A DNA stretch of 44,098 bases from a virus (IMGVR_UViG_2585427657_000002); one strand, 5' to 3'; positions 10,969 through 44,098 are shown, counted from the first letter of the stretch. The notes: generated from the letters alone by a model not told the origin. Made by a program: numbers and translations.

Positions 10969-12051
10969 TTAGAACTGATAAACCAGACCTACAGCGACGA
11001 TGTCGTCGGTATCAATACCAGCTGTTTTGGTAAACTTACTATCGTCAATTAAGTTGATTTTGTAATCAACAAAAGTGGACATGTTTTTATTAAAGTAGTA
11101 AGTAGCACCGACATCGACATACTTGACTAAGTCTCGGTCACCATGAACACCAAGGTCTTTACCTTTTGACTGAAGGTAAGCAACAGATGGACGCAGACCG
11201 AAGTCAAACTGATATTGTGCTACTGCTTCAAAGTTTTGTGCTTTGTTTGCAATATGGTTATTACCAAAAACGGTCATATTCTGAGTTTCAGAATATGTGG
11301 TAGCCAGATAGATATTGTTCGCATCATATTTCAGGCCTGCAGCCCATACTTCCGCATTTTTGCCGGAGGCATTGAATTTGCTCTTACCATAGGCGACCTG
11401 ACCGTCAGTGCGATCTGATTTAGCATAGGTTGCACCCACGCCGAATCCTTCATACTCATAAGTAGTGGAGAAACCGAAACCATCACCATTGGCTTCAGTT
11501 ACGTCAGTGCGGTCATTTTTACCCTGATACTGAGCAGCAAAGTTCAGGCCATCGACCAGACCAAAGAAGTCGTTGTTACGATAAGTTGCAACACCAGTAG
11601 TGCGACCAGTCATGAACACATCTGTTTGGGTCCAGGTATCACCACCGAATTCTGGCAGAACGTCAGTCCACGCACCGATGTCGTATGCTACACCGTAGTT
11701 ACGGCCGTAATCGATTGAGCCGTAATCACCAAATTTCAGGCCTGCAAATGCAAGACGGGTTTTGTCTTTGGAAGAACCTTGAGATTCAGCACGGTTGCCT
11801 TTGAATTCATATTCCCACTGACCGAAACCAGTCAGTTGATCGTTGATTTGGGTTTCACCTTTGAAGCCAAGACGGGCATAAGTAGTATCACCATCATCTG
11901 CATCATTAGAGGAGAAGTAGTGCTTGGCATTAACTTTCCCGTATAGATCCAGCTTGTTACTGTCTTTATTATAAATTTCAGCTGCCTGAGCAGACATCGC
12001 CATCAGTACTGATGCAGCTACAGCAGAAATTGCCACTGTTAATTTTTTCAT
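10969..12051 (-). CDS. nmpC: Outer-membrane general porin, phage-encoded OmpC-family (NmpC/Lc type)
   Basis: Signal peptide [23 protein letters not shown] then AEIYNKD...; C-terminal ...VAVGLVYQF; opposite orientation to phage late genes. Start taken as ATG 12051, not the longer ORF-track start. Confidence 0.9.
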
Positions 12052-12477
12052 TGTACGCCCTTTTTTTGAACTTTTATTAAAAAATGATGTCACTGCGCGA
12101 TAAATATTCATCTAATCAATGTGATTATTTCAAGATGTAAGTTTTAGTTTCTCATTTAATTTGTGAAGTAGATCTCTATTTTTATCTGAACCTTTTCTAT
12201 CTAATCCTATTCATGGCTCTTGTCTGAACAAAAATAAATCTATTAGCTAATTTATATTAATGGCACTTATTTATAAGTGCTCTATAATTCTTTAGCTTAA
12301 TTTAAACAAACTAAAAATAACATCGGAAATTATTAACTGGTTATTTGTTGAAGTTTTCTTATGCATTTGTGGTGGTGTTTTGAACACTCGGTGGCATTCT
12401 CACAAATATCATTTAGTAGTTTACGTACGTAAAAAATTGGTTATGCTGTTAAGAGTGGTTACTTCGTCACACAGCTT

Positions 12478-12510
12478 AAACCCGCCGTCGAGCGGGTTTT
12501 TCCATTTTTT
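12478..12510 (+). terminator. Intrinsic terminator upstream of the lysis cassette (candidate tR')
   Basis: Hairpin CCCGC-CGTCGA-GCGGG followed by TTTTTCCATTTTTT, about 130 bp before the holin start. Confidence 0.55.
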
Positions 12511-12639
12511 GAGTCTCGATATTAGCTGATAACCCAATACCTGAGTTATTCACTGACTCCGAATCTGTTACGTTTCTGCCTTTATTGCGATACGTAGTAT
12601 CCCCTTAATTTACACCCGCTTTGTCTGCGAGGTGGGGTT

Positions 12640-12855
12640 ATGAAATCCATGGATAAGTTAACAACGGGTGTCGCCTATGGTACCTCAGCAGGTAGTGCCG
12701 GGTACTGGTTTTTACAGTTGCTCGATAAAGTCACGCCCTCACAGTGGGCGGCAATAGGTGTGCTGGGTAGCCTGGTATTTGGCCTGCTGACGTACCTGAC
12801 AAACCTTTATTTCAAGATTAAAGAAGATAAGCGCAAGGCTGCGAGAGGTGAATAA
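12640..12855 (+). CDS. S: Holin, phage-21 pinholin type
   Basis: 71 aa, [71 protein letters not shown]; two TM segments, dual-start motif MKSM. Confidence 0.9.
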
Positions 12856-13352
12856 TGCCTCCATCATTACGAAAAGCCGTTGCTGCTGCTATTGGTGGCG
12901 GAGCAATTGCTATAGCATCAGTGTTAATCACTGGCCCAAGTGGTAACGATGGTCTGGAAGGTGTCAGCTACATACCATACAAAGATATTGTTGGTGTATG
13001 GACTGTATGTCACGGGCATACAGGAAAAGACATCATGCTCGGTAAAACGTATACCAAAGCAGAATGCAAAGCCCTCCTGAATAAAGACCTTGCCACGGTC
13101 GCCAGACAAATTAACCCGTACATCAAAGTCGATATACCGGAAACAATGCGCGGCGCTCTTTACTCATTCGTTTACAACGTGGGTGCTGGCAATTTCAGAA
13201 CATCGACGCTTCTTCGCAAAATAAACCAGGGCGATATCAAAGGCGCATGTGATCAGCTACGTCGCTGGACATATGCTGGCGGTAAGCAATGGAAAGGTCT
13301 CATGACTCGTCGTGAGATTGAGCGTGAAATCTGTTTGTGGGGTCAGCAATGA
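12855..13352 (+). CDS. R: SAR endolysin (lysozyme with signal-anchor-release N-terminus)
   Basis: 165 aa; N-terminal weakly hydrophobic SAR segment [20 protein letters not shown] followed by lysozyme domain; overlaps holin stop. Confidence 0.9.
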
Positions 13353-13810
13353 ACAGAGTAACCGCGATTATCTCCGCTCTGGTTATCTGCATCATCGTCT
13401 GCCTGTCATGGGCTGTTAATCATTACCGTGATAACGCCATTACCTACAAAGCCCAGCGCGACAAAAATGCCAGAGAACTGACGCTGGCGAACGCGGCAAT
13501 TACTGACATACAGATGCGTCAGCGTGATGTTGCTGCGCTCGATGCAAAATACACGAAGGAGTTAGCTGATGCGAAAGCTGAAAATGATGCTCTGCGTGAT
13601 GATGTTGCCGCTGGTCGTCGTCGGTTGCACATCAAAGCAGTCTGTCAGTCAGTGCGTGAAGCCACCACCGCCTCCGGCGTGGATAATGCAGCCTCCCCCC
13701 GACTGGCAGACACCGCTGAACGGGATTATTTCACCCTCAGAGAGAGGCTGATCACTATGCAAAAACAACTGGAAGGAACCCAGAAGTATATTAATGAGCA
13801 GTGCAGATAG
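13349..13810 (+). CDS. Rz: Rz i-spanin
   Basis: 153 aa, [38 protein letters not shown]...; N-terminal TM then coiled-coil; ATGA overlap with R. Confidence 0.9.
13569..13751 (+). CDS. Rz1: Rz1 o-spanin lipoprotein, embedded in the +1 frame of Rz
   Basis: [20 protein letters not shown]... lipobox, proline-rich mature part; entirely nested within Rz. Confidence 0.85.
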
Positions 13811-13841
13811 AGCTGCCCATATCGATGGGCAACTCATGCAA

Positions 13842-14135
13842 TTATTGTGAGCAATACACACGCGCTTCCAGCGGAGTATAAATGCCTAAAGTAATAAAAC
13901 CGAGCAATCCATTTACGAATGTTTGCTGGGTTTCTGTTTTAACAACATTTTCTGCACCACCACAAATTTTTGCTGCATCGACAGTTTTCTTCTGCCCAAT
14001 TCCCGAAACGAAGAAATGATGGGTGATGGTTTCCTTTGGTGTTACTGCTGTAGGTTTGTTTCCAACAGTAAACGTCTGTTGAGCACATCCTGTAATAAGC
14101 ATTGCCAGAGCGGCAGAAAACAACATTTTTTTCAT
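13842..14135 (-). CDS. bor: Bor lipoprotein (serum-resistance moron)
   Basis: 97 aa from MKKMLFSAALAMLITGCAQQTFTV... (lipobox LITGC). Confidence 0.9.
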   Translation of the reverse strand: MKKMLFSAALAMLITGCAQQTFTVGNKPTAVTPKETITHHFFVSGIGQKKTVDAAKICGGAENVVKTETQQTFVNGLLGFITLGIYTPLEARVYCSQ

Positions 14136-14615
14136 CTTATTATCCTGCATTGTTAAAAACGGCAGAATCCTATGTGACAACAATTAAACGATAGTTAAAT
14201 GGATTGATGAAAATTAAAACTACACAGGTGGGCTCAGACTATTGGAGGAAGTTGGGGACACTCAGAATCCTGTGGAATGAAATAAACCGGTCTATCCGTC
14301 CATTACCCTTTTAGCTGCGCTGTATCGTCGCCGTATTCCCGCATTAACCATGACCGTAGCCCGACGGGGAATTCCTTCTGCGTGAGTGTGCGGGAATAAT
14401 TAAAAACGATGCACACCGGGTTTTTACCGCGTTAATGATTCGCGGGTTTATCCCGGTGCGATGGTGGAAGAAACAGGAAGCTGTATTACAGAAAGTGCTA
14501 CTACTGTATCCCGATGCGATGTATGTAATGTGAGTCAGATAATGGCACAGGATGTGGTGATGTGGCAGTCTGGAACACAGGATATATTGTCAGAATAAGA
14601 CCCGTAGGAATAAAA

Positions 14616-14942
14616 ATGAAAAGACGCCTTTTACTACTTTTTCTGTTATCTGTCCTGGCAGTGGGATGCTCGCAGCAAAAAGCTGATGAGCCCCGGCAAT
14701 TAGTGACGGTGTATCCACGATATCCGGAATATGCTGCAGCAAATTATATCAAGGGGCTGGTTGAGGTTAAGTTCGATATTGGTGCTGATGGGACTGTGAC
14801 ACGGATCGTTTTTCTCCGCTCAGAGCCTCATAATTTGTTTCGTGATGAAGTGGTGAAGGCCATGGCGAAATGGCGATTTGAAAAGAATCGCCCCTGTCAG
14901 GGAGTGAAGAGACAATTTATCTTTACGCCGTCACGTCCTTGA
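14616..14942 (+). CDS. Lipoprotein with TonB C-terminal-like domain (moron)
   Basis: MKRRLLLLFLLSVLAVGCSQQ signal/lipobox, then VYPRYPEYAAANYIKGLVEVKFDIGADGTVTRIVFLRSEPHNLFRDEVVKAMAKWRFE, which matches the TonB_C pattern (YP..A...G.V.V.F.I..DG.V..I.......F...V..A...WR). Confidence 0.7.
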   Translation: MKRRLLLLFLLSVLAVGCSQQKADEPRQLVTVYPRYPEYAAANYIKGLVEVKFDIGADGTVTRIVFLRSEPHNLFRDEVVKAMAKWRFEKNRPCQGVKRQFIFTPSRP

Positions 14943-15064
14943 TGCTTCCAGGTAGAGAGGGGCTGGAAGCAGGAGAAAAATGAAAGAGCCAGCGGTTATA
15001 TTTTTGTCATGGCTGACGAGGAATGATGGAAGAAGGCGTTGTATGCCACACAACGCCTCACTGT

Positions 15065-15418
15065 TCATTTCTTCTTTTTCTCTGGTGGAACCCGATGAAT
15101 AAGAGTTGCACTGGTTTCCGATGAGATGGCGATATACTCGGGCAAAGTATGCTGGCAGTTTTCCAACTGGTCAAAAATACCTGCTCTCGTCTGTTGCAAT
15201 GCCTGCAGCATGCGGCGGCAATGCGCCTTGCTTTTACTAACCATCTTTCCTTCCTCTATCAGTCGCTGCGTGAACTCATCATGGAATACCAGGTAAATGC
15301 GGATGTTATCGGTTTTGGCTACGCAGCATAGTACAAAACGGACAGGTGCATCCCGGGACGGGGGAGGCGTCACATGTCCCTGTGATGGTTGTTCCGGGTA
15401 ATGTACTGTGTGGGGCAT
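15065..15418 (-). CDS. Hypothetical ORF (117 aa), coding status uncertain
   Basis: Open frame only; overlaps the small secretory ORF 15306..15557 and a + strand 60-aa ORF; identical copy at 19418..19771. Confidence 0.25.
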   Translation of the reverse strand: MPHTVHYPEQPSQGHVTPPPSRDAPVRFVLCCVAKTDNIRIYLVFHDEFTQRLIEEGKMVSKSKAHCRRMLQALQQTRAGIFDQLENCQHTLPEYIAISSETSATLIHRVPPEKKKK

Positions 15419-15557
15419 AAAAATGTCCGATAATTTTACTTTCTACCGCAGTTAGTTGATTCGTTGGTCCTGGTAGCACATTGGGCGAGGATTTAAATGC
15501 CAGGCAACTGAAGGATGATGTCGCAAGGGAGATAGCGAGAATATTTCTGATTTTCAT
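15306..15557 (-). CDS. Small predicted secreted Cys-rich protein (83 aa)
   Basis: MKIRNILAISLATSSFSCLA-FKSS signal peptide; mature part has four Cys (C..C.C..C near the C-terminus); identical copy at 19659..19910. Confidence 0.3.
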   Translation of the reverse strand: MKIRNILAISLATSSFSCLAFKSSPNVLPGPTNQLTAVESKIIGHFYAPHSTLPGTTITGTCDASPVPGCTCPFCTMLRSQNR

Positions 15558-15705
15558 TTGATGATGCCTCTGTGTGAAATGACGGTAAACGACGCACTTG
15601 TGCCGGCACATAATAGCAAGCACCATAATAGATCAGATTCGATTCTTGCTGTAAGTGATAATTATTCTCGTTTTCGGGTCCTTTCCGTCGATCCAACAGG
15701 TTACG

Positions 15706-15717
15706 GGGCGGCGACCT
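15706..15717 (+). other. cos: cosN cohesive-end site GGGCGGCGACCT (copy 1)
   Basis: ...ATCCAACAGGTTACG|GGGCGGCGACCT|CGCGG... matches the lambda right-end/left-end junction as recalled; cosB-like inverted GTCCGACATGAAAG / CATGTCGGGC elements lie between it and Nu1. Confidence 0.85.
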
Positions 15718-15893
15718 CGCGGTTTTTCACTATTTATGAAAATTTTTCAGGGAAAATCGTGTCGGTACTTCTCGAATATAACTTTTTGTTTTTTTTAATA
15801 TTGCATCCGTAAAGGTCCGACATGAAAGTGTCCGAAAATGCCTTTTTCTGGCGTTTTCATGTCGGGCCTTGTATTTGATAATGGGTTGTTTTC

Positions 15894-16158: not shown

Positions 16159-16323
16159 ACATCTTGAAATAATCACATTGATTAGATGAATATTTATCGC
16201 GCAGTGACATCATTTTTTAATAAAAGTTCAAAAAAAGGGCGTACAATGAAAAAATTAACAGTGGCAATTTCTGCTGTAGCTGCATCAGTACTGATGGCGA
16301 TGTCTGCTCAGGCAGCTGAAATT
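16159..16323. repeat. Fold-back arm: reverse complement of 11974..12138 forming a perfect palindrome with 16327..16491
   Basis: 16159..16323 reads as the exact reverse complement of the porin 5' end and upstream region; symmetry centre at about 16325 (GCTGAAATT-ATA-AATTTCAGC). Confidence 0.85.
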
Positions 16324-16830
16324 ATAAATTTCAGCTGCCTGAGCAGACATCGCCATCAGTACTGATGCAGCTACAGCAGAAATTGCCACTGTTAATTTTT
16401 TCATTGTACGCCCTTTTTTTGAACTTTTATTAAAAAATGATGTCACTGCGCGATAAATATTCATCTAATCAATGTGATTATTTCAAGATGTAAGTTTTAG
16501 TTTCTCATTTAATTTGTGAAGTAGATCTCTATTTTTATCTGAACCTTTTCTATCTAATCCTATTCATGGCTCTTGTCTGAACAAAAATAAATCTATTAGC
16601 TAATTTATATTAATGGCACTTATTTATAAGTGCTCTATAATTCTTTAGCTTAATTTAAACAAACTAAAAATAACATCGGAAATTATTAACTGGTTATTTG
16701 TTGAAGTTTTCTTATGCATTTGTGGTGGTGTTTTGAACACTCGGTGGCATTCTCACAAATATCATTTAGTAGTTTACGTACGTAAAAAATTGGTTATGCT
16801 GTTAAGAGTGGTTACTTCGTCACACAGCTT

Positions 16831-16863
16831 AAACCCGCCGTCGAGCGGGTTTTTCCATTTTTT
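16831..16863 (+). terminator. Duplicate of terminator 12478..12510
   Basis: Identical sequence at offset +4353. Confidence 0.5.
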
Positions 16864-16992
16864 GAGTCTCGATATTAGCTGATAACCCAATACCTGAGTT
16901 ATTCACTGACTCCGAATCTGTTACGTTTCTGCCTTTATTGCGATACGTAGTATCCCCTTAATTTACACCCGCTTTGTCTGCGAGGTGGGGTT

Positions 16993-17208
16993 ATGAAATC
17001 CATGGATAAGTTAACAACGGGTGTCGCCTATGGTACCTCAGCAGGTAGTGCCGGGTACTGGTTTTTACAGTTGCTCGATAAAGTCACGCCCTCACAGTGG
17101 GCGGCAATAGGTGTGCTGGGTAGCCTGGTATTTGGCCTGCTGACGTACCTGACAAACCTTTATTTCAAGATTAAAGAAGATAAGCGCAAGGCTGCGAGAG
17201 GTGAATAA
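16993..17208 (+). CDS. S: Holin (duplicate copy)
   Basis: Identical to 12640..12855. Confidence 0.85.
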
Positions 17209-17705
17209 TGCCTCCATCATTACGAAAAGCCGTTGCTGCTGCTATTGGTGGCGGAGCAATTGCTATAGCATCAGTGTTAATCACTGGCCCAAGTGGTAAC
17301 GATGGTCTGGAAGGTGTCAGCTACATACCATACAAAGATATTGTTGGTGTATGGACTGTATGTCACGGGCATACAGGAAAAGACATCATGCTCGGTAAAA
17401 CGTATACCAAAGCAGAATGCAAAGCCCTCCTGAATAAAGACCTTGCCACGGTCGCCAGACAAATTAACCCGTACATCAAAGTCGATATACCGGAAACAAT
17501 GCGCGGCGCTCTTTACTCATTCGTTTACAACGTGGGTGCTGGCAATTTCAGAACATCGACGCTTCTTCGCAAAATAAACCAGGGCGATATCAAAGGCGCA
17601 TGTGATCAGCTACGTCGCTGGACATATGCTGGCGGTAAGCAATGGAAAGGTCTCATGACTCGTCGTGAGATTGAGCGTGAAATCTGTTTGTGGGGTCAGC
17701 AATGA
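17208..17705 (+). CDS. R: SAR endolysin (duplicate copy)
   Basis: Identical to 12855..13352. Confidence 0.85.
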
Positions 17706-18163
17706 ACAGAGTAACCGCGATTATCTCCGCTCTGGTTATCTGCATCATCGTCTGCCTGTCATGGGCTGTTAATCATTACCGTGATAACGCCATTACCTAC
17801 AAAGCCCAGCGCGACAAAAATGCCAGAGAACTGACGCTGGCGAACGCGGCAATTACTGACATACAGATGCGTCAGCGTGATGTTGCTGCGCTCGATGCAA
17901 AATACACGAAGGAGTTAGCTGATGCGAAAGCTGAAAATGATGCTCTGCGTGATGATGTTGCCGCTGGTCGTCGTCGGTTGCACATCAAAGCAGTCTGTCA
18001 GTCAGTGCGTGAAGCCACCACCGCCTCCGGCGTGGATAATGCAGCCTCCCCCCGACTGGCAGACACCGCTGAACGGGATTATTTCACCCTCAGAGAGAGG
18101 CTGATCACTATGCAAAAACAACTGGAAGGAACCCAGAAGTATATTAATGAGCAGTGCAGATAG
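17702..18163 (+). CDS. Rz: Rz i-spanin (duplicate copy)
   Basis: Identical to 13349..13810. Confidence 0.85.
17922..18104 (+). CDS. Rz1: Rz1 o-spanin (duplicate copy)
   Basis: Identical to 13569..13751. Confidence 0.8.
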
Positions 18164-18194
18164 AGCTGCCCATATCGATGGGCAACTCATGCAA

Positions 18195-18488
18195 TTATTG
18201 TGAGCAATACACACGCGCTTCCAGCGGAGTATAAATGCCTAAAGTAATAAAACCGAGCAATCCATTTACGAATGTTTGCTGGGTTTCTGTTTTAACAACA
18301 TTTTCTGCACCACCACAAATTTTTGCTGCATCGACAGTTTTCTTCTGCCCAATTCCCGAAACGAAGAAATGATGGGTGATGGTTTCCTTTGGTGTTACTG
18401 CTGTAGGTTTGTTTCCAACAGTAAACGTCTGTTGAGCACATCCTGTAATAAGCATTGCCAGAGCGGCAGAAAACAACATTTTTTTCAT
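18195..18488 (-). CDS. bor: Bor lipoprotein (duplicate copy)
   Basis: Identical to 13842..14135. Confidence 0.85.
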   Translation of the reverse strand: MKKMLFSAALAMLITGCAQQTFTVGNKPTAVTPKETITHHFFVSGIGQKKTVDAAKICGGAENVVKTETQQTFVNGLLGFITLGIYTPLEARVYCSQ

Positions 18489-18968
18489 CTTATTATCCTG
18501 CATTGTTAAAAACGGCAGAATCCTATGTGACAACAATTAAACGATAGTTAAATGGATTGATGAAAATTAAAACTACACAGGTGGGCTCAGACTATTGGAG
18601 GAAGTTGGGGACACTCAGAATCCTGTGGAATGAAATAAACCGGTCTATCCGTCCATTACCCTTTTAGCTGCGCTGTATCGTCGCCGTATTCCCGCATTAA
18701 CCATGACCGTAGCCCGACGGGGAATTCCTTCTGCGTGAGTGTGCGGGAATAATTAAAAACGATGCACACCGGGTTTTTACCGCGTTAATGATTCGCGGGT
18801 TTATCCCGGTGCGATGGTGGAAGAAACAGGAAGCTGTATTACAGAAAGTGCTACTACTGTATCCCGATGCGATGTATGTAATGTGAGTCAGATAATGGCA
18901 CAGGATGTGGTGATGTGGCAGTCTGGAACACAGGATATATTGTCAGAATAAGACCCGTAGGAATAAAA

Positions 18969-19295
18969 ATGAAAAGACGCCTTTTACTACTTTTTCTGTT
19001 ATCTGTCCTGGCAGTGGGATGCTCGCAGCAAAAAGCTGATGAGCCCCGGCAATTAGTGACGGTGTATCCACGATATCCGGAATATGCTGCAGCAAATTAT
19101 ATCAAGGGGCTGGTTGAGGTTAAGTTCGATATTGGTGCTGATGGGACTGTGACACGGATCGTTTTTCTCCGCTCAGAGCCTCATAATTTGTTTCGTGATG
19201 AAGTGGTGAAGGCCATGGCGAAATGGCGATTTGAAAAGAATCGCCCCTGTCAGGGAGTGAAGAGACAATTTATCTTTACGCCGTCACGTCCTTGA
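18969..19295 (+). CDS. TonB-C-like lipoprotein (duplicate copy)
   Basis: Identical to 14616..14942. Confidence 0.65.
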   Translation: MKRRLLLLFLLSVLAVGCSQQKADEPRQLVTVYPRYPEYAAANYIKGLVEVKFDIGADGTVTRIVFLRSEPHNLFRDEVVKAMAKWRFEKNRPCQGVKRQFIFTPSRP

Positions 19296-20058
19296 TGCTT
19301 CCAGGTAGAGAGGGGCTGGAAGCAGGAGAAAAATGAAAGAGCCAGCGGTTATATTTTTGTCATGGCTGACGAGGAATGATGGAAGAAGGCGTTGTATGCC
19401 ACACAACGCCTCACTGTTCATTTCTTCTTTTTCTCTGGTGGAACCCGATGAATAAGAGTTGCACTGGTTTCCGATGAGATGGCGATATACTCGGGCAAAG
19501 TATGCTGGCAGTTTTCCAACTGGTCAAAAATACCTGCTCTCGTCTGTTGCAATGCCTGCAGCATGCGGCGGCAATGCGCCTTGCTTTTACTAACCATCTT
19601 TCCTTCCTCTATCAGTCGCTGCGTGAACTCATCATGGAATACCAGGTAAATGCGGATGTTATCGGTTTTGGCTACGCAGCATAGTACAAAACGGACAGGT
19701 GCATCCCGGGACGGGGGAGGCGTCACATGTCCCTGTGATGGTTGTTCCGGGTAATGTACTGTGTGGGGCATAAAAATGTCCGATAATTTTACTTTCTACC
19801 GCAGTTAGTTGATTCGTTGGTCCTGGTAGCACATTGGGCGAGGATTTAAATGCCAGGCAACTGAAGGATGATGTCGCAAGGGAGATAGCGAGAATATTTC
19901 TGATTTTCATTTGATGATGCCTCTGTGTGAAATGACGGTAAACGACGCACTTGTGCCGGCACATAATAGCAAGCACCATAATAGATCAGATTCGATTCTT
20001 GCTGTAAGTGATAATTATTCTCGTTTTCGGGTCCTTTCCGTCGATCCAACAGGTTACG

Positions 20059-20070
20059 GGGCGGCGACCT
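20059..20070 (+). other. cos: cosN (copy 2)
   Basis: Identical to 15706..15717 with the same flanks. Confidence 0.8.
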
Positions 20071-20246
20071 CGCGGTTTTTCACTATTTATGAAAATTTTT
20101 CAGGGAAAATCGTGTCGGTACTTCTCGAATATAACTTTTTGTTTTTTTTAATATTGCATCCGTAAAGGTCCGACATGAAAGTGTCCGAAAATGCCTTTTT
20201 CTGGCGTTTTCATGTCGGGCCTTGTATTTGATAATGGGTTGTTTTC

Positions 20247-20795
20247 ATGAAGGTTAATAAAAAGAGGCTTGCCGAAATTTTCAACGTGGACCCGCGGACG
20301 ATTGAACGCTGGCAGTCTCAGGGACTCCCTTGCGCCTCCAAAGGTAGTAAGGGCATTGAATCTGTATTTGATACTGCCATGGCAATTCAGTGGTATGCGC
20401 AGAGGGAAACTGATATCGAAAACGAAAAGCTCCGCAAAGAACTGGACGATTTGCGTGCGGCAGCGGAGTCAGATTTACAACCCGGCACCATTGACTATGA
20501 ACGCTACCGGCTCACAAAAGCGCAGGCAGATGCGCAGGAACTGAAAAATGCCCGTGAAGACGGAGTAGTGCTGGAAACTGAACTGTTTACCTTCATTCTG
20601 CAACGTGTGGCACAGGAGATTTCGGGGATACTTGTGCGTGTGCCGTTGACATTACAGCGTAAATATCCGGACATTTCACCATCACACCTTGATGTGGTGA
20701 AAACTGAAATCGCGAAAGCCTCCAATGTTGCAGCTAAGGCCGGTGAAAACGTGGGCGGGTGGATCGATGATTTCAGACGCGCAGAAGGCAGCTAA
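20247..20795 (+). CDS. nu1: Terminase small subunit Nu1 (full length, in duplicated copy B)
   Basis: 182 aa; ...[54 protein letters not shown]...; winged-helix N-terminus. Confidence 0.85.
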
Positions 20796-21358
20796 TGCAG
20801 CCGGTGCGATAGCTACAGGGCTTTTATCTCTCATTATTCCTGTTCCACTGACGACAGTTCAGTGGGCCAATAAACATTATTACCTTCCTAAAGAGTCGTC
20901 TTATACCCCGGGGCGATGGGAAACACTGCCGTTTCAGGTTGGCATCATGAACTGTATGGGCAACGATCTGATTCGCACGGTTAACCTGATTAAATCTGCC
21001 CGTGTTGGTTATACAAAGATGTTGCTGGGAGTGGAGGCTTATTTTATTGAGCATAAATCACGCAACAGCCTTCTTTTTCAGCCCACGGACTCAGCTGCTG
21101 AAGATTTTATGAAATCTCATGTTGAGCCAACGATAAGGGATGTTCCTGCATTGCTGGAGCTGGCTCCATGGTTCGGAAGAAAACACCGCGATAATACGCT
21201 CACCCTGAAGCGTTTTTCCTCCGGTGTGGGGTTCTGGTGTCTGGGTGGTGCGGCAGCAAAAAACTACCGTGAAAAATCCGTGGATGTGGTCTGTTATGAC
21301 GAGCTTTCCTCGTTCGAACCGGATGTTGAAAAAGAGGGTTCGCCAACCCTGCTGGGGG
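20725..21358 (+). pseudogene. A: Terminase large subunit A, 5' fragment ending at a rearrangement junction
   Basis: Identical to the first ~210 codons of 22889..24859, then joins sequence equivalent to 15426 onward (...PTLLG then GTCCGATAATTTTAC...). Confidence 0.7.
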
Positions 21359-21638
21359 TCCGATAATTTTACTTTCTACCGCAGTTAGTTGATTCGTTGG
21401 TCCTGGTAGCACATTGGGCGAGGATTTAAATGCCAGGCAACTGAAGGATGATGTCGCAAGGGAGATAGCGAGAATATTTCTGATTTTCATTTGATGATGC
21501 CTCTGTGTGAAATGACGGTAAACGACGCACTTGTGCCGGCACATAATAGCAAGCACCATAATAGATCAGATTCGATTCTTGCTGTAAGTGATAATTATTC
21601 TCGTTTTCGGGTCCTTTCCGTCGATCCAACAGGTTACG

Positions 21639-21650
21639 GGGCGGCGACCT
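21639..21650 (+). other. cos: cosN (copy 3)
   Basis: Identical 12-mer and flanks. Confidence 0.8.
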
Positions 21651-21826
21651 CGCGGTTTTTCACTATTTATGAAAATTTTTCAGGGAAAATCGTGTCGGTA
21701 CTTCTCGAATATAACTTTTTGTTTTTTTTAATATTGCATCCGTAAAGGTCCGACATGAAAGTGTCCGAAAATGCCTTTTTCTGGCGTTTTCATGTCGGGC
21801 CTTGTATTTGATAATGGGTTGTTTTC

Positions 21827-22092
21827 ATGAAGGTTAATAAAAAGAGGCTTGCCGAAATTTTCAACGTGGACCCGCGGACGATTGAACGCTGGCAGTCTCA
21901 GGGACTCCCTTGCGCCTCCAAAGGTAGTAAGGGCATTGAATCTGTATTTGATACTGCCATGGCAATTCAGTGGTATGCGCAGAGGGAAACTGATATCGAA
22001 AACGAAAAGCTCCGCAAAGAACTGGACGATTTGCGTGCGGCAGCGGAGTCAGATTTACAACCCGGCACCATTGACTATGAACGCTACCGGCT
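21827..22092 (+). pseudogene. nu1: Nu1 5' fragment (third copy), truncated after codon ~88
   Basis: ...TIDYERYRL then joins sequence equivalent to 15576 onward. Confidence 0.7.
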
Positions 22093-22222
22093 GAAATGAC
22101 GGTAAACGACGCACTTGTGCCGGCACATAATAGCAAGCACCATAATAGATCAGATTCGATTCTTGCTGTAAGTGATAATTATTCTCGTTTTCGGGTCCTT
22201 TCCGTCGATCCAACAGGTTACG

Positions 22223-22234
22223 GGGCGGCGACCT
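22223..22234 (+). other. cos: cosN (copy 4, the one contiguous with the intact packaging/head operon)
   Basis: Identical 12-mer and flanks, about 190 bp upstream of the intact Nu1 at 22411. Confidence 0.85.
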
Positions 22235-22410
22235 CGCGGTTTTTCACTATTTATGAAAATTTTTCAGGGAAAATCGTGTCGGTACTTCTCGAATATAACT
22301 TTTTGTTTTTTTTAATATTGCATCCGTAAAGGTCCGACATGAAAGTGTCCGAAAATGCCTTTTTCTGGCGTTTTCATGTCGGGCCTTGTATTTGATAATG
22401 GGTTGTTTTC

Positions 22411-22959
22411 ATGAAGGTTAATAAAAAGAGGCTTGCCGAAATTTTCAACGTGGACCCGCGGACGATTGAACGCTGGCAGTCTCAGGGACTCCCTTGCGCC
22501 TCCAAAGGTAGTAAGGGCATTGAATCTGTATTTGATACTGCCATGGCAATTCAGTGGTATGCGCAGAGGGAAACTGATATCGAAAACGAAAAGCTCCGCA
22601 AAGAACTGGACGATTTGCGTGCGGCAGCGGAGTCAGATTTACAACCCGGCACCATTGACTATGAACGCTACCGGCTCACAAAAGCGCAGGCAGATGCGCA
22701 GGAACTGAAAAATGCCCGTGAAGACGGAGTAGTGCTGGAAACTGAACTGTTTACCTTCATTCTGCAACGTGTGGCACAGGAGATTTCGGGGATACTTGTG
22801 CGTGTGCCGTTGACATTACAGCGTAAATATCCGGACATTTCACCATCACACCTTGATGTGGTGAAAACTGAAATCGCGAAAGCCTCCAATGTTGCAGCTA
22901 AGGCCGGTGAAAACGTGGGCGGGTGGATCGATGATTTCAGACGCGCAGAAGGCAGCTAA
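22411..22959 (+). CDS. nu1: Terminase small subunit Nu1
   Basis: 182 aa, identical to 20247..20795; followed by overlapping terminase A. Confidence 0.9.
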
Positions 22960-37915: not shown

Positions 37916-40900
37916 ATGGGTAAAGGCAGCAGTAAGGGGCATACCCCGCGCGAAGCGAAGGACAACCTGAAATCATCCCAGATGCTGAGCGTGATAGACG
38001 CCATCAGCGAAGGGCCGGTTGAAGGTCCGGTGGATGGATTAAAAAGCGTGCTGCTGAACAGTACGCCGGTGCTGGACAGTGAGGGGAATACCAATATATT
38101 CGGCGTCACGGTGGTGTTCCGGGCCGGTGAGCAGGAGCAGACACCGCCGGAGGGATTTGAATCCTCCGGCTCCGAGACGGTGCTCGGTACAGAAGTGAAA
38201 TATGACACGCCGATCACCCGGACCATCACGTCGGCAAACATTGACCGTCTGCGTTTTACTTTCGGCGTGCAGGCACTGGTGGAAACCACCTCAAAGGGGG
38301 ACAGGAATCCATCGGAAGTCCGCCTGCTGGTTCAGATTCAACGTAACGGTGGCTGGGTGACGGAAAAAGACATCACCATTAAGGGCAAAACCACGTCGCA
38401 GTATCTGGCCTCGGTGGTGGTGGATAACCTGCCGCCGCGCCCGTTTAATATCCGGATGCGCAGGATGACGCCGGACAGCACCACAGACCAGTTGCAGAAC
38501 AAAACGCTCTGGTCGTCATACACCGAAATCATCGATGTGAAACAGTGCTACCCGAACACGGCACTGGTCGGCGTACAGGTGGACTCGGAGCAGTTCGGCA
38601 GCCAGCAGGTGAGCCGTAATTATCATCTTCGCGGGCGCATTCTGCAGGTGCCGTCGAACTATAACCCGCAGACGCGGCAATACAGCGGTATCTGGGACGG
38701 AACGTTTAAGCCAGCATACAGCAACAACATGGCCTGGTGTCTGTGGGATATGCTGACCCATCCGCGCTACGGCATGGGGAAACGTCTTGGTGCGGCAGAT
38801 GTGGATAAATGGGCGCTGTATGTCATCGGCCAGAATTGCGACCAGTCAGTGCCGGACGGCTTTGGCGGCACGGAGCCGCGCATCACCTGTAATGCGTACC
38901 TGACCACACAGCGCAAGGCGTGGGATGTGCTCAGTGATTTTTGCTCGGCGATGCGCTGTATGCCGGTATGGAACGGGCAGACGCTGACATTCGTGCAGGA
39001 CCGACCGTCGGATAAGGTGTGGACCTATAACCGCAGTAATGTGGTGATGCCGGATGATGGCGCGCCGTTCCGCTACAGCTTCAGCGCCCTGAAAGACCGC
39101 CATAATGCCGTTGAGGTGAACTGGATTGACCCGGATAACGGCTGGGAGACGGCGACAGAGCTTGTGGAGGACACGCAGGCCATTGCCCGTTACGGTCGTA
39201 ACGTCACGAAGATGGATGCCTTTGGCTGTACCAGCCGGGGGCAGGCACACCGCGCCGGGCTGTGGCTGATTAAAACGGAGCTGCTGGAAACGCAGACCGT
39301 GGACTTCAGCGTGGGTGCAGAAGGGCTTCGCCATGTACCGGGCGATGTCATTGAAATCTGTGATGATGACTATGCGGGGATCAGCATCGGCGGGCGCGTG
39401 CTGGCGGTGAACAACCAGACGCGGACACTGACGCTCGACCGTGAAATCACGCTGCCATCCTCCGGCACCACGCTGATAAGCCTGGCTGACGGACAGGGGA
39501 ATCCGGTCAGCGTGGAGGTCCAGTCCGTCACCGACGGCGTGAAGGTAAAAGTGAGCCGTGTTCCTGACGGCGTTGCAGAATACAGCGTGTGGGGGCTGAA
39601 GTTGCCAACGTTGCGCCAGCGCCTGTTCCGCTGTGTGAGTATCCGTGAGAACGATGACGGCACGTATGCCATCACTGCCGTGCAGCATGTACCGGAAAAA
39701 GAGGCCATCGTGGATAACGGGGCGCACTTTGACGGCGACCAGAGCGGCACGGTGAATGGTGTCACGCCGCCAGCGGTGCAGCACCTGACTGCCGAAGTCA
39801 CCGCAGACAGCGGGGAATATCAGGTGCTGGCGCGCTGGGACACGCCGAAGGTGGTGAAGGGGGTGAGCTTTATGCTTCGCCTGACCGTGGCAGCGGATGA
39901 CGGCAGTGAGCGGCTGGTCAGCACGGCCCGGACGACGGAAACCACATACCGCTTCAGGCAACTGGCGCTGGGGAACTACAGGCTGACAGTCCGGGCGGTA
40001 AATGCGTGGGGGCAGCAGGGCGATCCGGCATCGGTATCGTTCCGGATTGCCGCACCGGCAGCGCCGTCGCAGATTGAGCTGACACCGGGGTATTTTCAGA
40101 TAACCGCCACGCCGCATCTTGCGGTTTATGATCCGACGGTACAGTTTGAGTTCTGGTTCTCGGAAAAGCGGATTGCGGATATCAGGCAGGTTGAAACCAC
40201 AGCACGCTATCTTGGCACGGCGCTGTACTGGATAGCCGCCAGTATCAATATCAAACCGGGCCATGATTATTATTTTTACATCCGCAGTGTGAACACCGTT
40301 GGCAAATCGGCATTTGTGGAGGCTGTTGGCCAGCCGAGTGATGATGCATCCGGCTATCTGAATTTTTTCAAAGGAGAGATAGGGAAAACCCATCTGGCTC
40401 AGGAGTTGTGGACGCAGATTGATAACGGTCAGCTTGCGCCTGACCTGGCTGAAATCAGGACGTCCATTACGGGTGTCAGCAATGAAATCACGCAGACCGT
40501 CAATAAGAAACTGGAAGACCAGAGTGCAGCGATCCAGCAGATACAGAAGGTTCAGGTTGATACAAATAATAACCTGAACAGCATGTGGGCTGTGAAGCTG
40601 CAGCAGATGCAGGACGGACGCCTTTATATCGCGGGTATTGGTGCCGGTGTTGAGAATACTCCTGACGGTATGCAGAGTCAGGTGCTGCTGGCGGCGGACA
40701 GGATTGCGATGATTAATCCTGCGAATGGCAACACAAAGCCGATGTTTGTTGGGCAGGGCGATCAGATATTCATGAACGAAGTGTTCCTGAAATATCTGAC
40801 GGCTCCCACCATTACCAGCGGTGGCAATCCCCCAACGTTTTCACTGACACCTGATGGTCGACTTTCTGCGAAAAATGCGGATATCAGCGGTAACGTGAAC

Positions 40901-41398
40901 GCGAACTCCGGGACGCTCAACAACGTCACGATTAATCAGAACTGTCGGATTCTGGGAAAACTGTCAGCTAACCAGATTGAAGGTGATATTGTCAAAACGG
41001 TGGGAAAAGCCTTTCCGAGAAATGGCAGTTATGCCAGCGGTACAATAACGGTCACTGTGTACGATGACCAGGCTTTTGACCGTCAGATAGTAGTCCCCCC
41101 CGTTCTGTTTCGTGGGGGTAAGCATGAAAACTTCAACAGCAACAACCAACAGTCATACTGGTATTCAACCTGTAAGCTGCAGGTACTGAAGAACGGACAG
41201 GAAATCTTTCAGCAACCCGCGACGGATGTCAGCAGGGTATTTTCATCAGTCATTGATATGCCTGCCGGACACGGCCATGTCACCCTGACTTTCAATGTTT
41301 CTTCATATGGTGCTAATAACTGGACGCCAACGACCAGTATCAGCGACCTTCTTGTTGTTGTGATGAAGAAATCTACAGCCGGTATCAGTATCAGTTGA
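37916..41398 (+). CDS. J: Central tail fibre / host-specificity protein J
   Basis: 1160 aa; conserved lambda-J N-terminus ([37 protein letters not shown]...) and a C-terminal receptor-binding region. Confidence 0.95.
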
Positions 41399-41416
41399 AT
41401 TTTATAACCCAGATAC

Positions 41417-41443
41417 GGGCGCCAGAAATGGCGCCTTTTTTAT
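41417..41443 (+). terminator. Intrinsic terminator after J
   Basis: GGCGCC-AGAAAT-GGCGCC followed by TTTTTTATTT. Confidence 0.6.
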
Positions 41444-41450
41444 TTGTGGA

Positions 41451-43517
41451 GTGAATATGGCAGTACAGATTTCAGGCGTGCTGAAAGACGGTGCAGGAAA
41501 ACCGATACAGAACTGCACCATTCAGCTCAAAGCAAAACGTAACAGCACCACGGTTGTGGTGAACACGGTGGCCTCAGAAAATCCGGATGAAGCCGGACGT
41601 TACAGCATGGATGTCGAGTATGGCCAGTACAGCGTTATCCTGCTGGTTGAAGGTTTTCCGCCTTCACATGCCGGGGCCATCACCGTGTATGAGGATTCTA
41701 AGCCGGGGACATTGAATGATTTTCTGGGCGCTGCAACAGAAGATGATGTTCGTCCGGAGGCACTGTATCGTTTTGAAAAGATGGTGGAAGAGGTGGCACG
41801 CAACGCTGAAGCCGCCTCTCAGAGCGCAGCGGCAGCAAAGAAATCAGAAACAGCAGCGGCATCGTCCAGGAATGCGGCGAAAACATCAGAGACGAATGCA
41901 GGTAACAGCGCGAAAGCGGCAGCTTCTTCAAAAACAGCCGCACAAAACGCAGCAACAGCGGCAGAACGTTCAGAGACAAATGCCCGTGCGTCAGAAGAAG
42001 CCTCCGCAGACAGTGAAGAGGCTTCCCGCCGTAATGCAGAGTCAGCCGCTGAAAATGCCGGAGTCGCCACCACAAAAGCGCGGGAGGCCGCAGCAGACGC
42101 AACAAAGGCCGGGCAGAAAAAGGATGAGGCTCTGTCGGCAGCGACACGGGCTGAAAAGGCGGCAGACCGCGCAGAAGTCGCAGCGGAAGTGACTGCAGAG
42201 CCCTATGCGAATATAGTGCCGCCGCTGCCTGATGTGTGGATACCGTTTAACGATTCACTGGATATGATTGCGGGTTTTTCTCCGGGCTATAAAAAAATAG
42301 CTATTGGTGACGATGTGGTTCAGGTCGCCAGTGATAAACAGGTTAATTTCAGTCGCGCATCAACGGCAACATATATCAACAAATCTGGCGAACTGAAAAC
42401 GGCGGAAATTAATGAGCCGCGATTTGAGTGTGATGGCCTGCTTATTGAGGGACAAAGAACGAACTACATGCTCAATTCGGAAAGTCCAGCCAGCTGGGGG
42501 AAGTCATCAAACATGGATGTGCCCGAAACCGGGACAGATAGTTTTGGTTTTACTTATGGAAAGTTTGTCTGCAACGATTCTCTGGTTGGGCAAACTTCGG
42601 CTATTAATATGGCATCAATTGCTGCAACAAAGTCAGTTGATGTCTCAGGCGATAACAAGTACGTGACAACCTCATGCCGTTTTAAAACAGAACGACAGGT
42701 AAGGTTACGTATACGGTTTGATAAGTATGATGGTAGTGCAACAACTTTTCTTGGCGATGCGTACATTGATACGCAAACGCTTGAAATTAATATGACAGGT
42801 GGGGCTGCCGGCAGAATTACGGCACGAGTCAGGAAGGATAAGACCACAGGCTGGATTTTTGCAGAGGCAACGATTCAGGCAATTGATGGTGAGTTAAAAA
42901 TAGGCTCTCAGATACAGTATTCTCCTGAGCGGGGTGGGGCAACAGTATCTGGTGACTATATTTATCTTGCCACCCCACAAGTAGAGAATGGGCCGTGTGT
43001 ATCATCATTTATTATTTCAGGAGGCAGCGCAACGACAAGAGCCAGTGATTTGGTTAGTATCCCCACCAGAAATAATCTTTATAAGTTACCATTTACTTTT
43101 TTACTTGAGATTCATAAAAACTGGGATATTGCACCAAACGCCGCACCCCGCGTGTGGGATATAGCAGCAGCCAATACCGGGCAATCAGCAATTGCAGCAA
43201 TCAACAGAGGTAGTGGTAAGTTATATATGAGTCTGTCAAACCCTTCAGGCTTGTATGTTAATAGTGCAGCGACAGATGTATTTGCAGAGAAAACCACATT
43301 TGGATGTATTGCAAAAGCTGATGGTCACTTTCATGTGGTGACAAATGGTAAAGCGGTTAATGAAGTTTATTGTGAATATAATGGTGTGACCGCTGATAAA
43401 AATATCCGATTTGGAGGGCAGACGAATACTGGAGAACGACATCTGTTTGGCCATATTCGCAATTTCCGCATATGGCATAAAGAATTAAATGACAGGCAAT
43501 TAAAAGAGGTCGTATGA
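41451..43517 (+). CDS. stf: Side tail fibre protein (Stf-type N-terminus and Ala-rich shaft; divergent C-terminal distal domain)
   Basis: N-terminus MAVQISGVLKDGAGKPIQNCTIQLKAKRNSTTVVVNTV...GRYSMDVEYGQYSVIL resembles lambda Stf; Ala/Ser-rich repeats with recurring SETNA motif; last ~430 aa unrelated to lambda Stf, ending ...RNFRIWHKELNDRQLKEVV. Confidence 0.8.
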   Translation: MNMAVQISGVLKDGAGKPIQNCTIQLKAKRNSTTVVVNTVASENPDEAGRYSMDVEYGQYSVILLVEGFPPSHAGAITVYEDSKPGTLNDFLGAATEDDVRPEALYRFEKMVEEVARNAEAASQSAAAAKKSETAAASSRNAAKTSETNAGNSAKAAASSKTAAQNAATAAERSETNARASEEASADSEEASRRNAESAAENAGVATTKAREAAADATKAGQKKDEALSAATRAEKAADRAEVAAEVTAEPYANIVPPLPDVWIPFNDSLDMIAGFSPGYKKIAIGDDVVQVASDKQVNFSRASTATYINKSGELKTAEINEPRFECDGLLIEGQRTNYMLNSESPASWGKSSNMDVPETGTDSFGFTYGKFVCNDSLVGQTSAINMASIAATKSVDVSGDNKYVTTSCRFKTERQVRLRIRFDKYDGSATTFLGDAYIDTQTLEINMTGGAAGRITARVRKDKTTGWIFAEATIQAIDGELKIGSQIQYSPERGGATVSGDYIYLATPQVENGPCVSSFIISGGSATTRASDLVSIPTRNNLYKLPFTFLLEIHKNWDIAPNAAPRVWDIAAANTGQSAIAAINRGSGKLYMSLSNPSGLYVNSAATDVFAEKTTFGCIAKADGHFHVVTNGKAVNEVYCEYNGVTADKNIRFGGQTNTGERHLFGHIRNFRIWHKELNDRQLKEVV

Positions 43518-43792
43518 AAGATTTAACTTTGAAGTTTCATGACAAACTGCAGTTTAAGGCCTTCCTGTCATCTCTTGACTGGGAGGAGGATGAAGACCTC
43601 CAGAATAAACTGTTAGTCGATGAAATTGGTTTCACCTACACAGAAACAGGGGTAACAGAAGAGGGAGAACCTGTCTGTGTCCGGAATGACGGTTATTTTG
43701 TCAACATTCGCATTCTTGATGACTTGTTTGATGTTTCTGTATTCTCTGATTATGTCGTGGAGCTGGAAACACCGCTTCGGGAATGGAGCTGA
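43514..43792 (+). CDS. Hypothetical acidic protein (92 aa), translationally coupled to stf
   Basis: ATGA overlap with stf stop; MKDLTLKFHDKLQFKAFLSSLDWEEDEDLQNKLLVDEIGFTYTE...; not a recognisable Tfa. Confidence 0.5.
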   Translation: MKDLTLKFHDKLQFKAFLSSLDWEEDEDLQNKLLVDEIGFTYTETGVTEEGEPVCVRNDGYFVNIRILDDLFDVSVFSDYVVELETPLREWS

Positions 43793-43804: not shown

Positions 43805-44098
43805 ATGGATATAAGCCCCTTACTTCATGCGCTTTGTGCTGTGGCTGCGCAGATACTGGTTGGTCTTTTTACCGGAAACTGGGCTTACGGAGCGATAGCC
43901 GGTTGTACGTTCTTCATTGCGCGTGAACATACCCAGGCAGAATATCGCTGGATTGAAATGTTCGGGCATGGCAAGCGAATGAATATGCCGTGGTGGGGCG
44001 GTTTTGATCCGCGAGCTTGGGATGTGGCAAGCCTGATGGATTTTGCTGTGCCGGTGGTGGCGTGTCTGCTGGTCTGGCTGTTGGTTAATCGTGGGTGA
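43805..44098 (+). CDS. Hypothetical small integral membrane protein (97 aa)
   Basis: GGAGG 6 nt upstream of ATG; hydrophobic segments LLHALCAVAAQILVGLF, AYGAIAGCTFFIA, FAVPVVACLLVWLLV; stop codon is the last three bases of the window. Confidence 0.5.
   Translation: MDISPLLHALCAVAAQILVGLFTGNWAYGAIAGCTFFIAREHTQAEYRWIEMFGHGKRMNMPWWGGFDPRAWDVASLMDFAVPVVACLLVWLLVNRG

Follow-up and report, generated by a model that had tools for sequence, protein, structure and literature searches.

Side tail fiber gene of a phage-21-like lambdoid prophage, with a lambda-type collar and a predicted tandem jelly-roll head

Genes and features of the locus

The window analyzed here is the whole 44,098-nucleotide stretch of viral DNA (IMGVR_UViG_2585427657_000002), which has the order of a prophage and reaches as far as the stop codon of a membrane-protein gene. 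Internal duplications were also seen in the window, outside the fiber region. The gene for J, the central tail fiber or tip attachment protein, occupies positions 37916–41398 on the plus strand. It was predicted as an ORF of 1160 amino acids with Pfam J domains including Ig_GpJ_C, shares 82.6% identity with lambda J (tblastn), and has a counterpart annotated as central tail fiber in the phage 21 record. A spacer of 58 nt, too short for any gene, separates the end of J at 41398 from the start codon of stf. Within this spacer, an intrinsic-terminator-like hairpin followed by a T run was identified at 41417–41445 (plus strand). The hairpin has an 8-bp stem with 6 G-C pairs (GGGCGCCA-GAAA-UGGCGCCU, then the U run) and a folding energy of -22 kcal/mol (z = -4.0 relative to shuffled sequences), in agreement with a preliminary description that had placed a terminator right after J. 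The phage 21 record annotates the same terminator at this hairpin, together with the same ribosome-binding site.

The next gene, stf, encodes a side tail fiber of 686 amino acids plus stop codon at 41457–43517 on the plus strand, as identified from its ORF, its ribosome-binding site and its alignment to lambda Stf. It is the only long ORF in the region 41399–43517 and can be opened either at GTG 41451 or at ATG 41457. The start is almost certainly ATG 41457, because a GGAG box lies upstream at 41449–41452, lambda Stf and PDB 9e7m both align with the resulting product from Met1, and databases contain the 686-aa form, in a cluster of 2,232 member sequences. The GTG start was dropped in favor of this ATG, so that the length of 688 aa given earlier is two residues too long. 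One RefSeq record of E. coli Nissle 1917 carries the gene as a partial pseudogene plus a second CDS. Since the two DNAs are 100% identical and no interruption occurs in the ORF here, this split looks like an annotation artefact; the pseudogene reading was rejected, and the stf gene is intact.

The stop codon of stf overlaps the ATG of a small gene (ATGA) that encodes a 92-aa protein at 43514–43792 on the plus strand and is preceded by an AGAGG box. In phage 21 and in Nissle 1917, the 92-aa ORF precedes the gene of a small membrane protein, after which sitDCBA lies on the opposite strand. Searches of the whole 44-kb window by tblastn returned no match to lambda Lom (best E 2.2), to lambda orf-314, the C-terminal half of Stf (best E 1.2), or to lambda Tfa (best E 1.1). 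Therefore lom, the lambda-type tip and its chaperone are absent from the window, and the lack of a lom-like gene between J and stf, which had been proposed before, follows both from the Lom search and from the 58-nt spacer.

The 2,119 bases of positions 41399–43517 show 100% nucleotide identity to phage 21 (OL657228), in which the gene CPT_21_22 is annotated as "side tail fiber", and are also 100% identical to phage ev017 and to the lambdoid prophage of E. coli Nissle 1917. A copy at ≥80% query coverage is present in 575 of 5,426 complete E. coli genomes, and the C-terminal module of the protein was found in 218 phage records. The gene thus encodes the side tail fiber of a lambdoid prophage that resembles phage 21 (Jouyvirus). 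It is not a new gene: phage 21 is publicly annotated, family models already cover the domains, and a homolog has been treated in the literature. Nothing relevant on the function of the phage 21 or Nissle side fiber was found in the literature searched. A preprint on capsules and prophages was set aside, as it concerns a P2-like phage.

Anchor, shaft and distal head of Stf

Residues 1–91 of Stf (41457–41729, plus strand) form the collar or anchor domain, which docks the fiber on the tail. The N-terminus matches PF08400 with an E value of 9.8e-69 (230 bits against a Pfam cutoff of 26.6) and residues 1–94 of PDB 9e7m (Ur-lambda gpStfN) with an E value of 1.4e-49. The alignment with lambda orf-401 contains 117 identities in 158 positions, with approximately 85% identity over residues 1–120, so the first 100 or so residues are indeed Stf-like as first described. 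The docking role of the Stf collar domain is known from cryo-EM of Ur-lambda, where 12 copies at the gpV/gpM junction give rise to four trimeric fibers (PMC12617516). The collar is followed by an Ala/Ser/Glu-rich repetitive shaft at residues 102–248 (41760–42200, plus strand), recognized from its composition and from the lambda Stf alignment. It contains 15–18 Ala per 50 residues over residues 101–250 and shares 53% identity with lambda Stf 239–345, which bears out the Ala-rich, Stf-like shaft of the preliminary description. The coiled-coil rod of lambda Stf spans residues 102–393 (PMC12617516). The shaft found here is about half as long as the proximal rod of lambda and, by homology, is presumed to be a trimeric coiled coil.

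The similarity to lambda ends beyond the shaft. Neither BLASTP nor tblastn revealed a resemblance of residues 255–686 to lambda orf-401, orf-314 or Tfa, and the C-terminal 430 or so residues thus differ from lambda, as had been noted. The left edge of this exchangeable module is a conserved junction at residues 255–297 (PLPDVWIPFNDSL...; 42219–42347, plus strand), which was delimited by low column entropy and is the common start point of homologs with differing N-termini. Two domains follow. Domain 1 (residues ~298–538; 42348–43070, plus strand) is a concanavalin-A-like jelly roll homologous to the head spike fiber of the gene transfer agent RcGTA, with a hypervariable body at residues 346–498. 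Domain 2 (residues ~539–686; 43071–43514, plus strand) is a predicted Laminin_G_3-like jelly roll (PF13385) with a hypervariable body at residues 545–655 and the conserved closing motif LFGHIRNFRIWHKELNDRQLK.

Domain 1 was assigned from NCBIfam NF048003 ("phage head spike fiber domain"), which covers residues 329–529 with 55.3 bits against a cutoff of 36, and from the match to the PDB sequence for RcGTA's head spike fiber Rcc01080 (E 1.4e-9, or 3.2e-36 with the family profile). The match of domain 2 to Laminin_G_3, at residues 562–683, has an E value of 5e-5 and scores 23.9–25 bits, below the gathering cutoff of 27.6; the C-terminal motif NFRIWHKELNDRQL lies inside it. In the alignment used for modeling, which comprises 71 sequences including distant homologs at 24–87% identity, 31 sequences match LamG_3 at E ≤ 0.001, with a best E value of 9.9e-11.

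AlphaFold2 predicted residues 249–686, modeled as a monomer, to be all-beta (pLDDT 87.6, pTM 0.85), with lower model confidence in the junction at 255–297 (pLDDT 66–87). The predicted head has the two-sheet jelly-roll beta-sandwich fold. In the fold comparison, the highest score was obtained with domain 4 of the arabinanase AbnA (20.9), followed by the lectin-like Hc N-domain of botulinum and tetanus toxins (17–20), sialic-acid-binding CBM40 modules (14–16), and pentraxins, laminin-G and neurexin LNS domains (13–15). The best of these matches align 188–191 residues, more than the length of the last domain, and therefore report on domain 1; the fold assignment of domain 2 comes from the Pfam LamG_3 match in 31 of the 71 homologs. 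Many phage proteins with the same tandem concanavalin-A-like arrangement were recovered by Foldseek against BFVD. Enzymes from this superfamily scored about 12. It is judged very improbable that the head is an enzyme of the concanavalin-A-like glucanase superfamily, either glycanase or lyase, that breaks down O-antigen or capsule in the manner of a tailspike.

No gp37-, lambda- or T5-type tip appeared among the fold matches of the head. The lectin-like reading is therefore favored over a canonical lambda Stf or gp37-type tip, and fold prediction and comparison were carried out on the C-terminal 430 or so residues as the preliminary description had proposed. Its lectin-like C-terminal domain stands as regards the predicted jelly-roll fold, and is corrected in number: two jelly rolls are predicted in tandem where one had been supposed. 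No Pfam match to Peptidase_S74 (pfam13884), the autocleaving chaperone, was found here at E ≤ 1. Homologs in PDB 6tb9 (RcGTA) and 9occ (Sf11 Dit) were considered as solved structures for the head and rejected, as neither has the homologous domain resolved; it is resolved only in E217 gp45 and Pa193 gp46. In the Sf11 distal tail protein, the domain is a per-chain appendage without resolved coordinates.

Mosaicism of the head and its partner gene

The C-terminal module is joined to at least three families of N-terminal anchors (PF08400, PF12571 and PF03406), and it also occurs on the fiber anchors of T1-like, T5-like, Dhillonvirus, Queuovirinae and rV5-like phages. Column entropy divides it into conserved frames (residues 255–345, 499–535 and 659–686) that flank the hypervariable bodies (346–498 and 545–655), with mean pairwise identities of 0.50–0.62 in the frames versus 0.22–0.30 in the bodies.

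Relatives of the fiber display the exchange directly. In ev203, the N-terminus and shaft are 93–100% identical up to residue 270, the domain 1 body is 23–50% and the domain 2 body 10–40% identical, and the C-terminal motif (85%) and the 92-aa gene (93%) are conserved. In PhiR63_1, the N-terminus is 90–97% identical with a partly divergent shaft, the domain 1 body is 90–100% and the domain 2 body 20–30% identical, and the C-terminal motif and the 92-aa gene reach 69% and 54%. Among 300 homologs, a sample biased to relatives of the query, the domain 1 type of the query is paired with seven domain 2 types, and for each domain there are 21 types that pair with two or more types of the other. The two domain bodies reassort independently of each other. 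The exchange of the receptor-binding domain suggested in the preliminary description is thus borne out by the many anchors that carry the module and by the divergent bodies behind identical N-termini and shafts. This is a genuine instance of module exchange in phage host recognition, and one that had been catalogued before. If the conserved frame segments act as recombination joints, the bodies that sit between them would for that reason be swapped as cassettes, each independently.

In 145 phage records, which come from several families and include IrisVonRoten (gene 23), a homolog of the 92-aa gene lies directly 3' of the module, and the pairing spans siphoviruses and myoviruses. A 110-aa gene located 3' of the fiber gene in rV5-like phages is a distant homolog (hhalign 98.2%, E 6e-14). 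The 92-aa protein is unrelated to Tfa, and its predicted fold matches nothing informative. As the comparison with ev203 and PhiR63_1 indicates, its divergence does not follow that of the variable bodies, and any contact is therefore more likely to be with the conserved frame. The translationally coupled 92-aa protein occupies the genomic place of Tfa, and it probably either helps the head to fold or assemble or is carried on it. From the position of the gene, our guess is that it is a chaperone or a tip subunit.

Conserved frames together with a conserved 92-aa partner suggest a conserved protein–protein interface, and the module could accordingly be read as a structural platform that docks a second fiber or the 92-aa protein and is not the receptor-binding domain itself. 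A precedent is found in IrisVonRoten, where the module is carried by the proximal fiber Gp22 and the T-shaped fiber Gp24 is predicted to attach there (PMC11990801). However, no second fiber gene follows stf in the window or in phage 21, and two hypervariable, independently exchanged bodies would be needless for a pure platform, which makes a mere docking role improbable. A receptor-binding head is preferred here.

Proposed role of the head and comparison with known systems

We propose, as a probable though by no means certain reading, that this side fiber combines a lambda-type collar, a short shaft and, on each chain, a two-jelly-roll lectin head that reversibly binds surface polysaccharide. 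Residues 1–91 would dock twelve chains as four trimeric fibers at the junction of tail tube and tail tip, and each chain would end in its own self-contained head, with domain 1 of the GTA head-spike-fiber type and domain 2 of the Laminin_G_3 type. The heads may act as lectins that reversibly bind O-antigen, capsule or LPS core, with avidity arising from the three heads of a fiber. Glycan binding would concentrate virions on the cell until J reaches its outer-membrane receptor, and specificity would be seated in the two hypervariable domain bodies.

Glycan binding by the head is plausible by analogy, the ligand class being taken from the fold neighbors and the distant GTA homolog. The RcGTA head spike fiber is the only experimentally studied homolog; in tagged form it bound 100% to the capsulated wild type and approximately 4% to a capsule-less mutant (PMC10218006), and each head spike has one flexible chain of it (PMC7296036). 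The corresponding domain of IrisVonRoten Gp22 was described as "galectin-like" and as a possible additional receptor-binding domain (PMC11990801). In siphoviruses, the first receptor of the side fibers is generally O-antigen or another exposed glycan, and it is dispensable. Together, these parallels support, for this fiber, a putative reversible binding of glycans by three separate heads. Domain 1 is also found in non-trimeric settings, namely Sf11 Dit gp17 and E217 gp45, which supports a fold that is autonomous in each chain. The baseplate wedge proteins of E217 and Pa193 carry it.

Some points count against the lectin explanation. The conserved frame holds invariant acidic residues (NEPRFE..GLLIEG and PQxE) for which it does not account, the LamG_3 match of this sequence falls below the gathering score, concanavalin-A-like and LamG domains bind proteins as well, and the best-matching neurotoxin Hc N-domain is not known to have a ligand. 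The jelly rolls could also be protein-binding modules with which the head recognizes an outer-membrane protein instead of a glycan, on the model of lambda Stf, which recognizes OmpC. Against this, the only studied homolog, the RcGTA head spike fiber, is capsule-dependent, the strongest fold matches are the carbohydrate-binding modules AbnA domain 4 and CBM40, and the 115 and 116 body types in 300 sequences resemble glycan-directed rather than porin-directed domains. A protein receptor for the head therefore seems unlikely, and a polysaccharide is preferred as its ligand.

In phages 4A7, 1W, 3W and 4C10, an IS insertion removes the last ~44 codons of stf, including the conserved C-terminus. If these are propagated phages, as the record names suggest, the fiber would be dispensable in the laboratory. 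The side fiber is likewise dispensable in the laboratory in lambda PaPa.

A broader proposal is offered tentatively, and we hold it more doubtful than the reading of this single fiber. The head and its 92-aa partner may form a portable receptor-binding cassette that works without Tfa or an intramolecular chaperone and is common to lambda-like, T1-like, T5-like, Dhillonvirus, Queuovirinae and rV5-like phages, with domain 1 also in gene transfer agents. Each chain would carry a non-intertwined lectin head, the bodies would be swapped independently to give dual or combinatorial specificity, and the partner would be a new class of fiber chaperone or a tip subunit.

As a discovery this is modest, being an example of the well-known modular exchange of tail-fiber tips in a gene already deposited and annotated. 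The C-terminal module is common, however, in E. coli genomes and phages, and occurs in the active prophage of the probiotic strain Nissle 1917. At present, lambda-based delivery particles are made with foreign tips fused onto the lambda Stf (PMC11338833). Should each chain carry a lectin head with two specificity cassettes that can be exchanged independently at clear joints, the head would be a handy scaffold for retargeting such particles and would aid host-range prediction for lambdoid and Stx-type prophages. Experiments would be most worthwhile on the independent exchange of the cassettes and on the conserved partner gene.

Several known systems can be compared with this fiber. Ur-lambda Stf resembles it in the collar (approximately 85% identity over residues 1–120), in the Ala-rich coiled-coil shaft that comes next, and in the position of the gene after J in the late operon. 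The hinge, the gp37-like six-stranded rod, the HxH-rich tip, the Tfa gene and the lom gene between J and stf are missing here. In the lambda fiber, a hinge and an intertwined, gp37-like rod and tip come after the shaft, with Tfa as chaperone, whereas separate two-domain heads are predicted for the present fiber. The Stf of Gifsy-1, which binds LPS core galactose, was considered as a homolog and rejected, as it is a lambda-type Stf with 50% identity to that of Ur-lambda throughout. The fibers of phage 21 (CPT_21_22) and Nissle 1917 do not differ from the one described here and are followed by the same 92-aa and membrane-protein genes.

RcGTA Rcc01080 is homologous in domain 1, to which the alignment is limited. 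It is anchored to capsid pentons by an N-terminal Ile/Leu-Gly repeat peptide, which binds a pentameric base (PMC7296036). This GTA-type capsid anchor is absent from Stf, whose N-terminus is the lambda collar domain and which sits on the tail. AbnA domain 4, CBM40, the neurotoxin Hc N-domain, pentraxins and laminin-G share 7–15% sequence identity with the head, and their ligand sites are not transferable; these jelly rolls are not components of phage fibers. T5 pb1 and LtfA/LtfB of DT57C are siphovirus side fibers for which O-antigen is a dispensable primary receptor, and the functional model used in this account is taken from them. Intertwined trimers make up their tips, which carry a C-terminal chaperone of the autocleaving type, pfam13884 (PMC4728585). 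This chaperone is absent here, and the LtfA of DT57C and DT571-2 was accordingly rejected as a characterized homolog, its pfam13884 autocleaving tip being a different module. In the T5-like phage IrisVonRoten (Bas32), Gp22 has a T5-type N-terminus, a longer shaft and the T-shaped fiber Gp24 encoded downstream, none of which is found here. The whole two-domain module is nevertheless homologous, with 46% identity over a 589-residue BLASTP alignment, and Gp22 is followed by a homolog of the 92-aa protein with 49% identity.

The 92-aa gene and the insertion element near the stf 3' end

A gene encoding a 92-aa protein (window 43514-43792) overlaps the stop codon of the side tail fibre gene, stf. 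The jelly-roll module, the distal head of Stf, has this gene as its conserved partner across lambdoid, T1-like, T5-like, Dhillonvirus and Queuovirinae phages; in rV5-like phages, a distant relative of the gene accompanies the module. Fold prediction for the 92-aa protein returned no informative match. In phage 4A7 (NC_049946; 5794-8460), an insertion element lies near the 3' end of stf, carrying three transposase ORFs and standing between stf and the 92-aa gene. The same arrangement is found in the related phages 1W, 3W and Lambda_4C10, and in all four genomes stf loses its conserved C-terminal motif through the insertion.

The stf annotation in Nissle 1917 and the window end

The RefSeq annotation of the E. 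coli Nissle 1917 prophage (NZ_CP022686; 6059-8119) divides stf into a 'partial' pseudogene and a separate CDS for a 'phage head spike fiber domain-containing protein'. This splitting is probably an annotation artefact, because at the DNA level the Nissle 1917 gene shows 100% identity to the ORF of the window, which is uninterrupted. The last ORF of the window (43805-44098; phrog_1443) encodes 97 aa, and its stop codon is the exact end of the window. The phage 21 annotation describes its product as a putative membrane protein that has two transmembrane segments as well as a signal sequence. In both phage 21 and Nissle 1917, the sitDCBA iron/manganese transporter operon follows next on the opposite strand.

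Repeated sequences within the window

Large direct repeats, 100% identical and with offsets of 4353 and 2164, were found in the late-gene region, flanked by early genes on one side and the large terminase gene on the other. The repeat copies occupy 11968-15874 and 16321-20227, with further repeated stretches at 21358-21807 and 22092-22391 and repeated ORFs at 20247-20795 and 22411-22959. Related phages match window 1-24000 in 5-6 pieces only. The repeats look like a tandem duplication, or an artefact of assembly or concatenation.

The region encoding the Ala-rich shaft of Stf (window 41698-42192, both strands) also contains long ORFs in alternative frames and in antisense orientation, with lengths of 149, 158 and 84 aa. 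Most likely, these ORFs arise incidentally from the Ala/Ser codon composition, which is repetitive and GC-rich. In lambda, an antisense ORF, orf206b, is annotated at the equivalent place.
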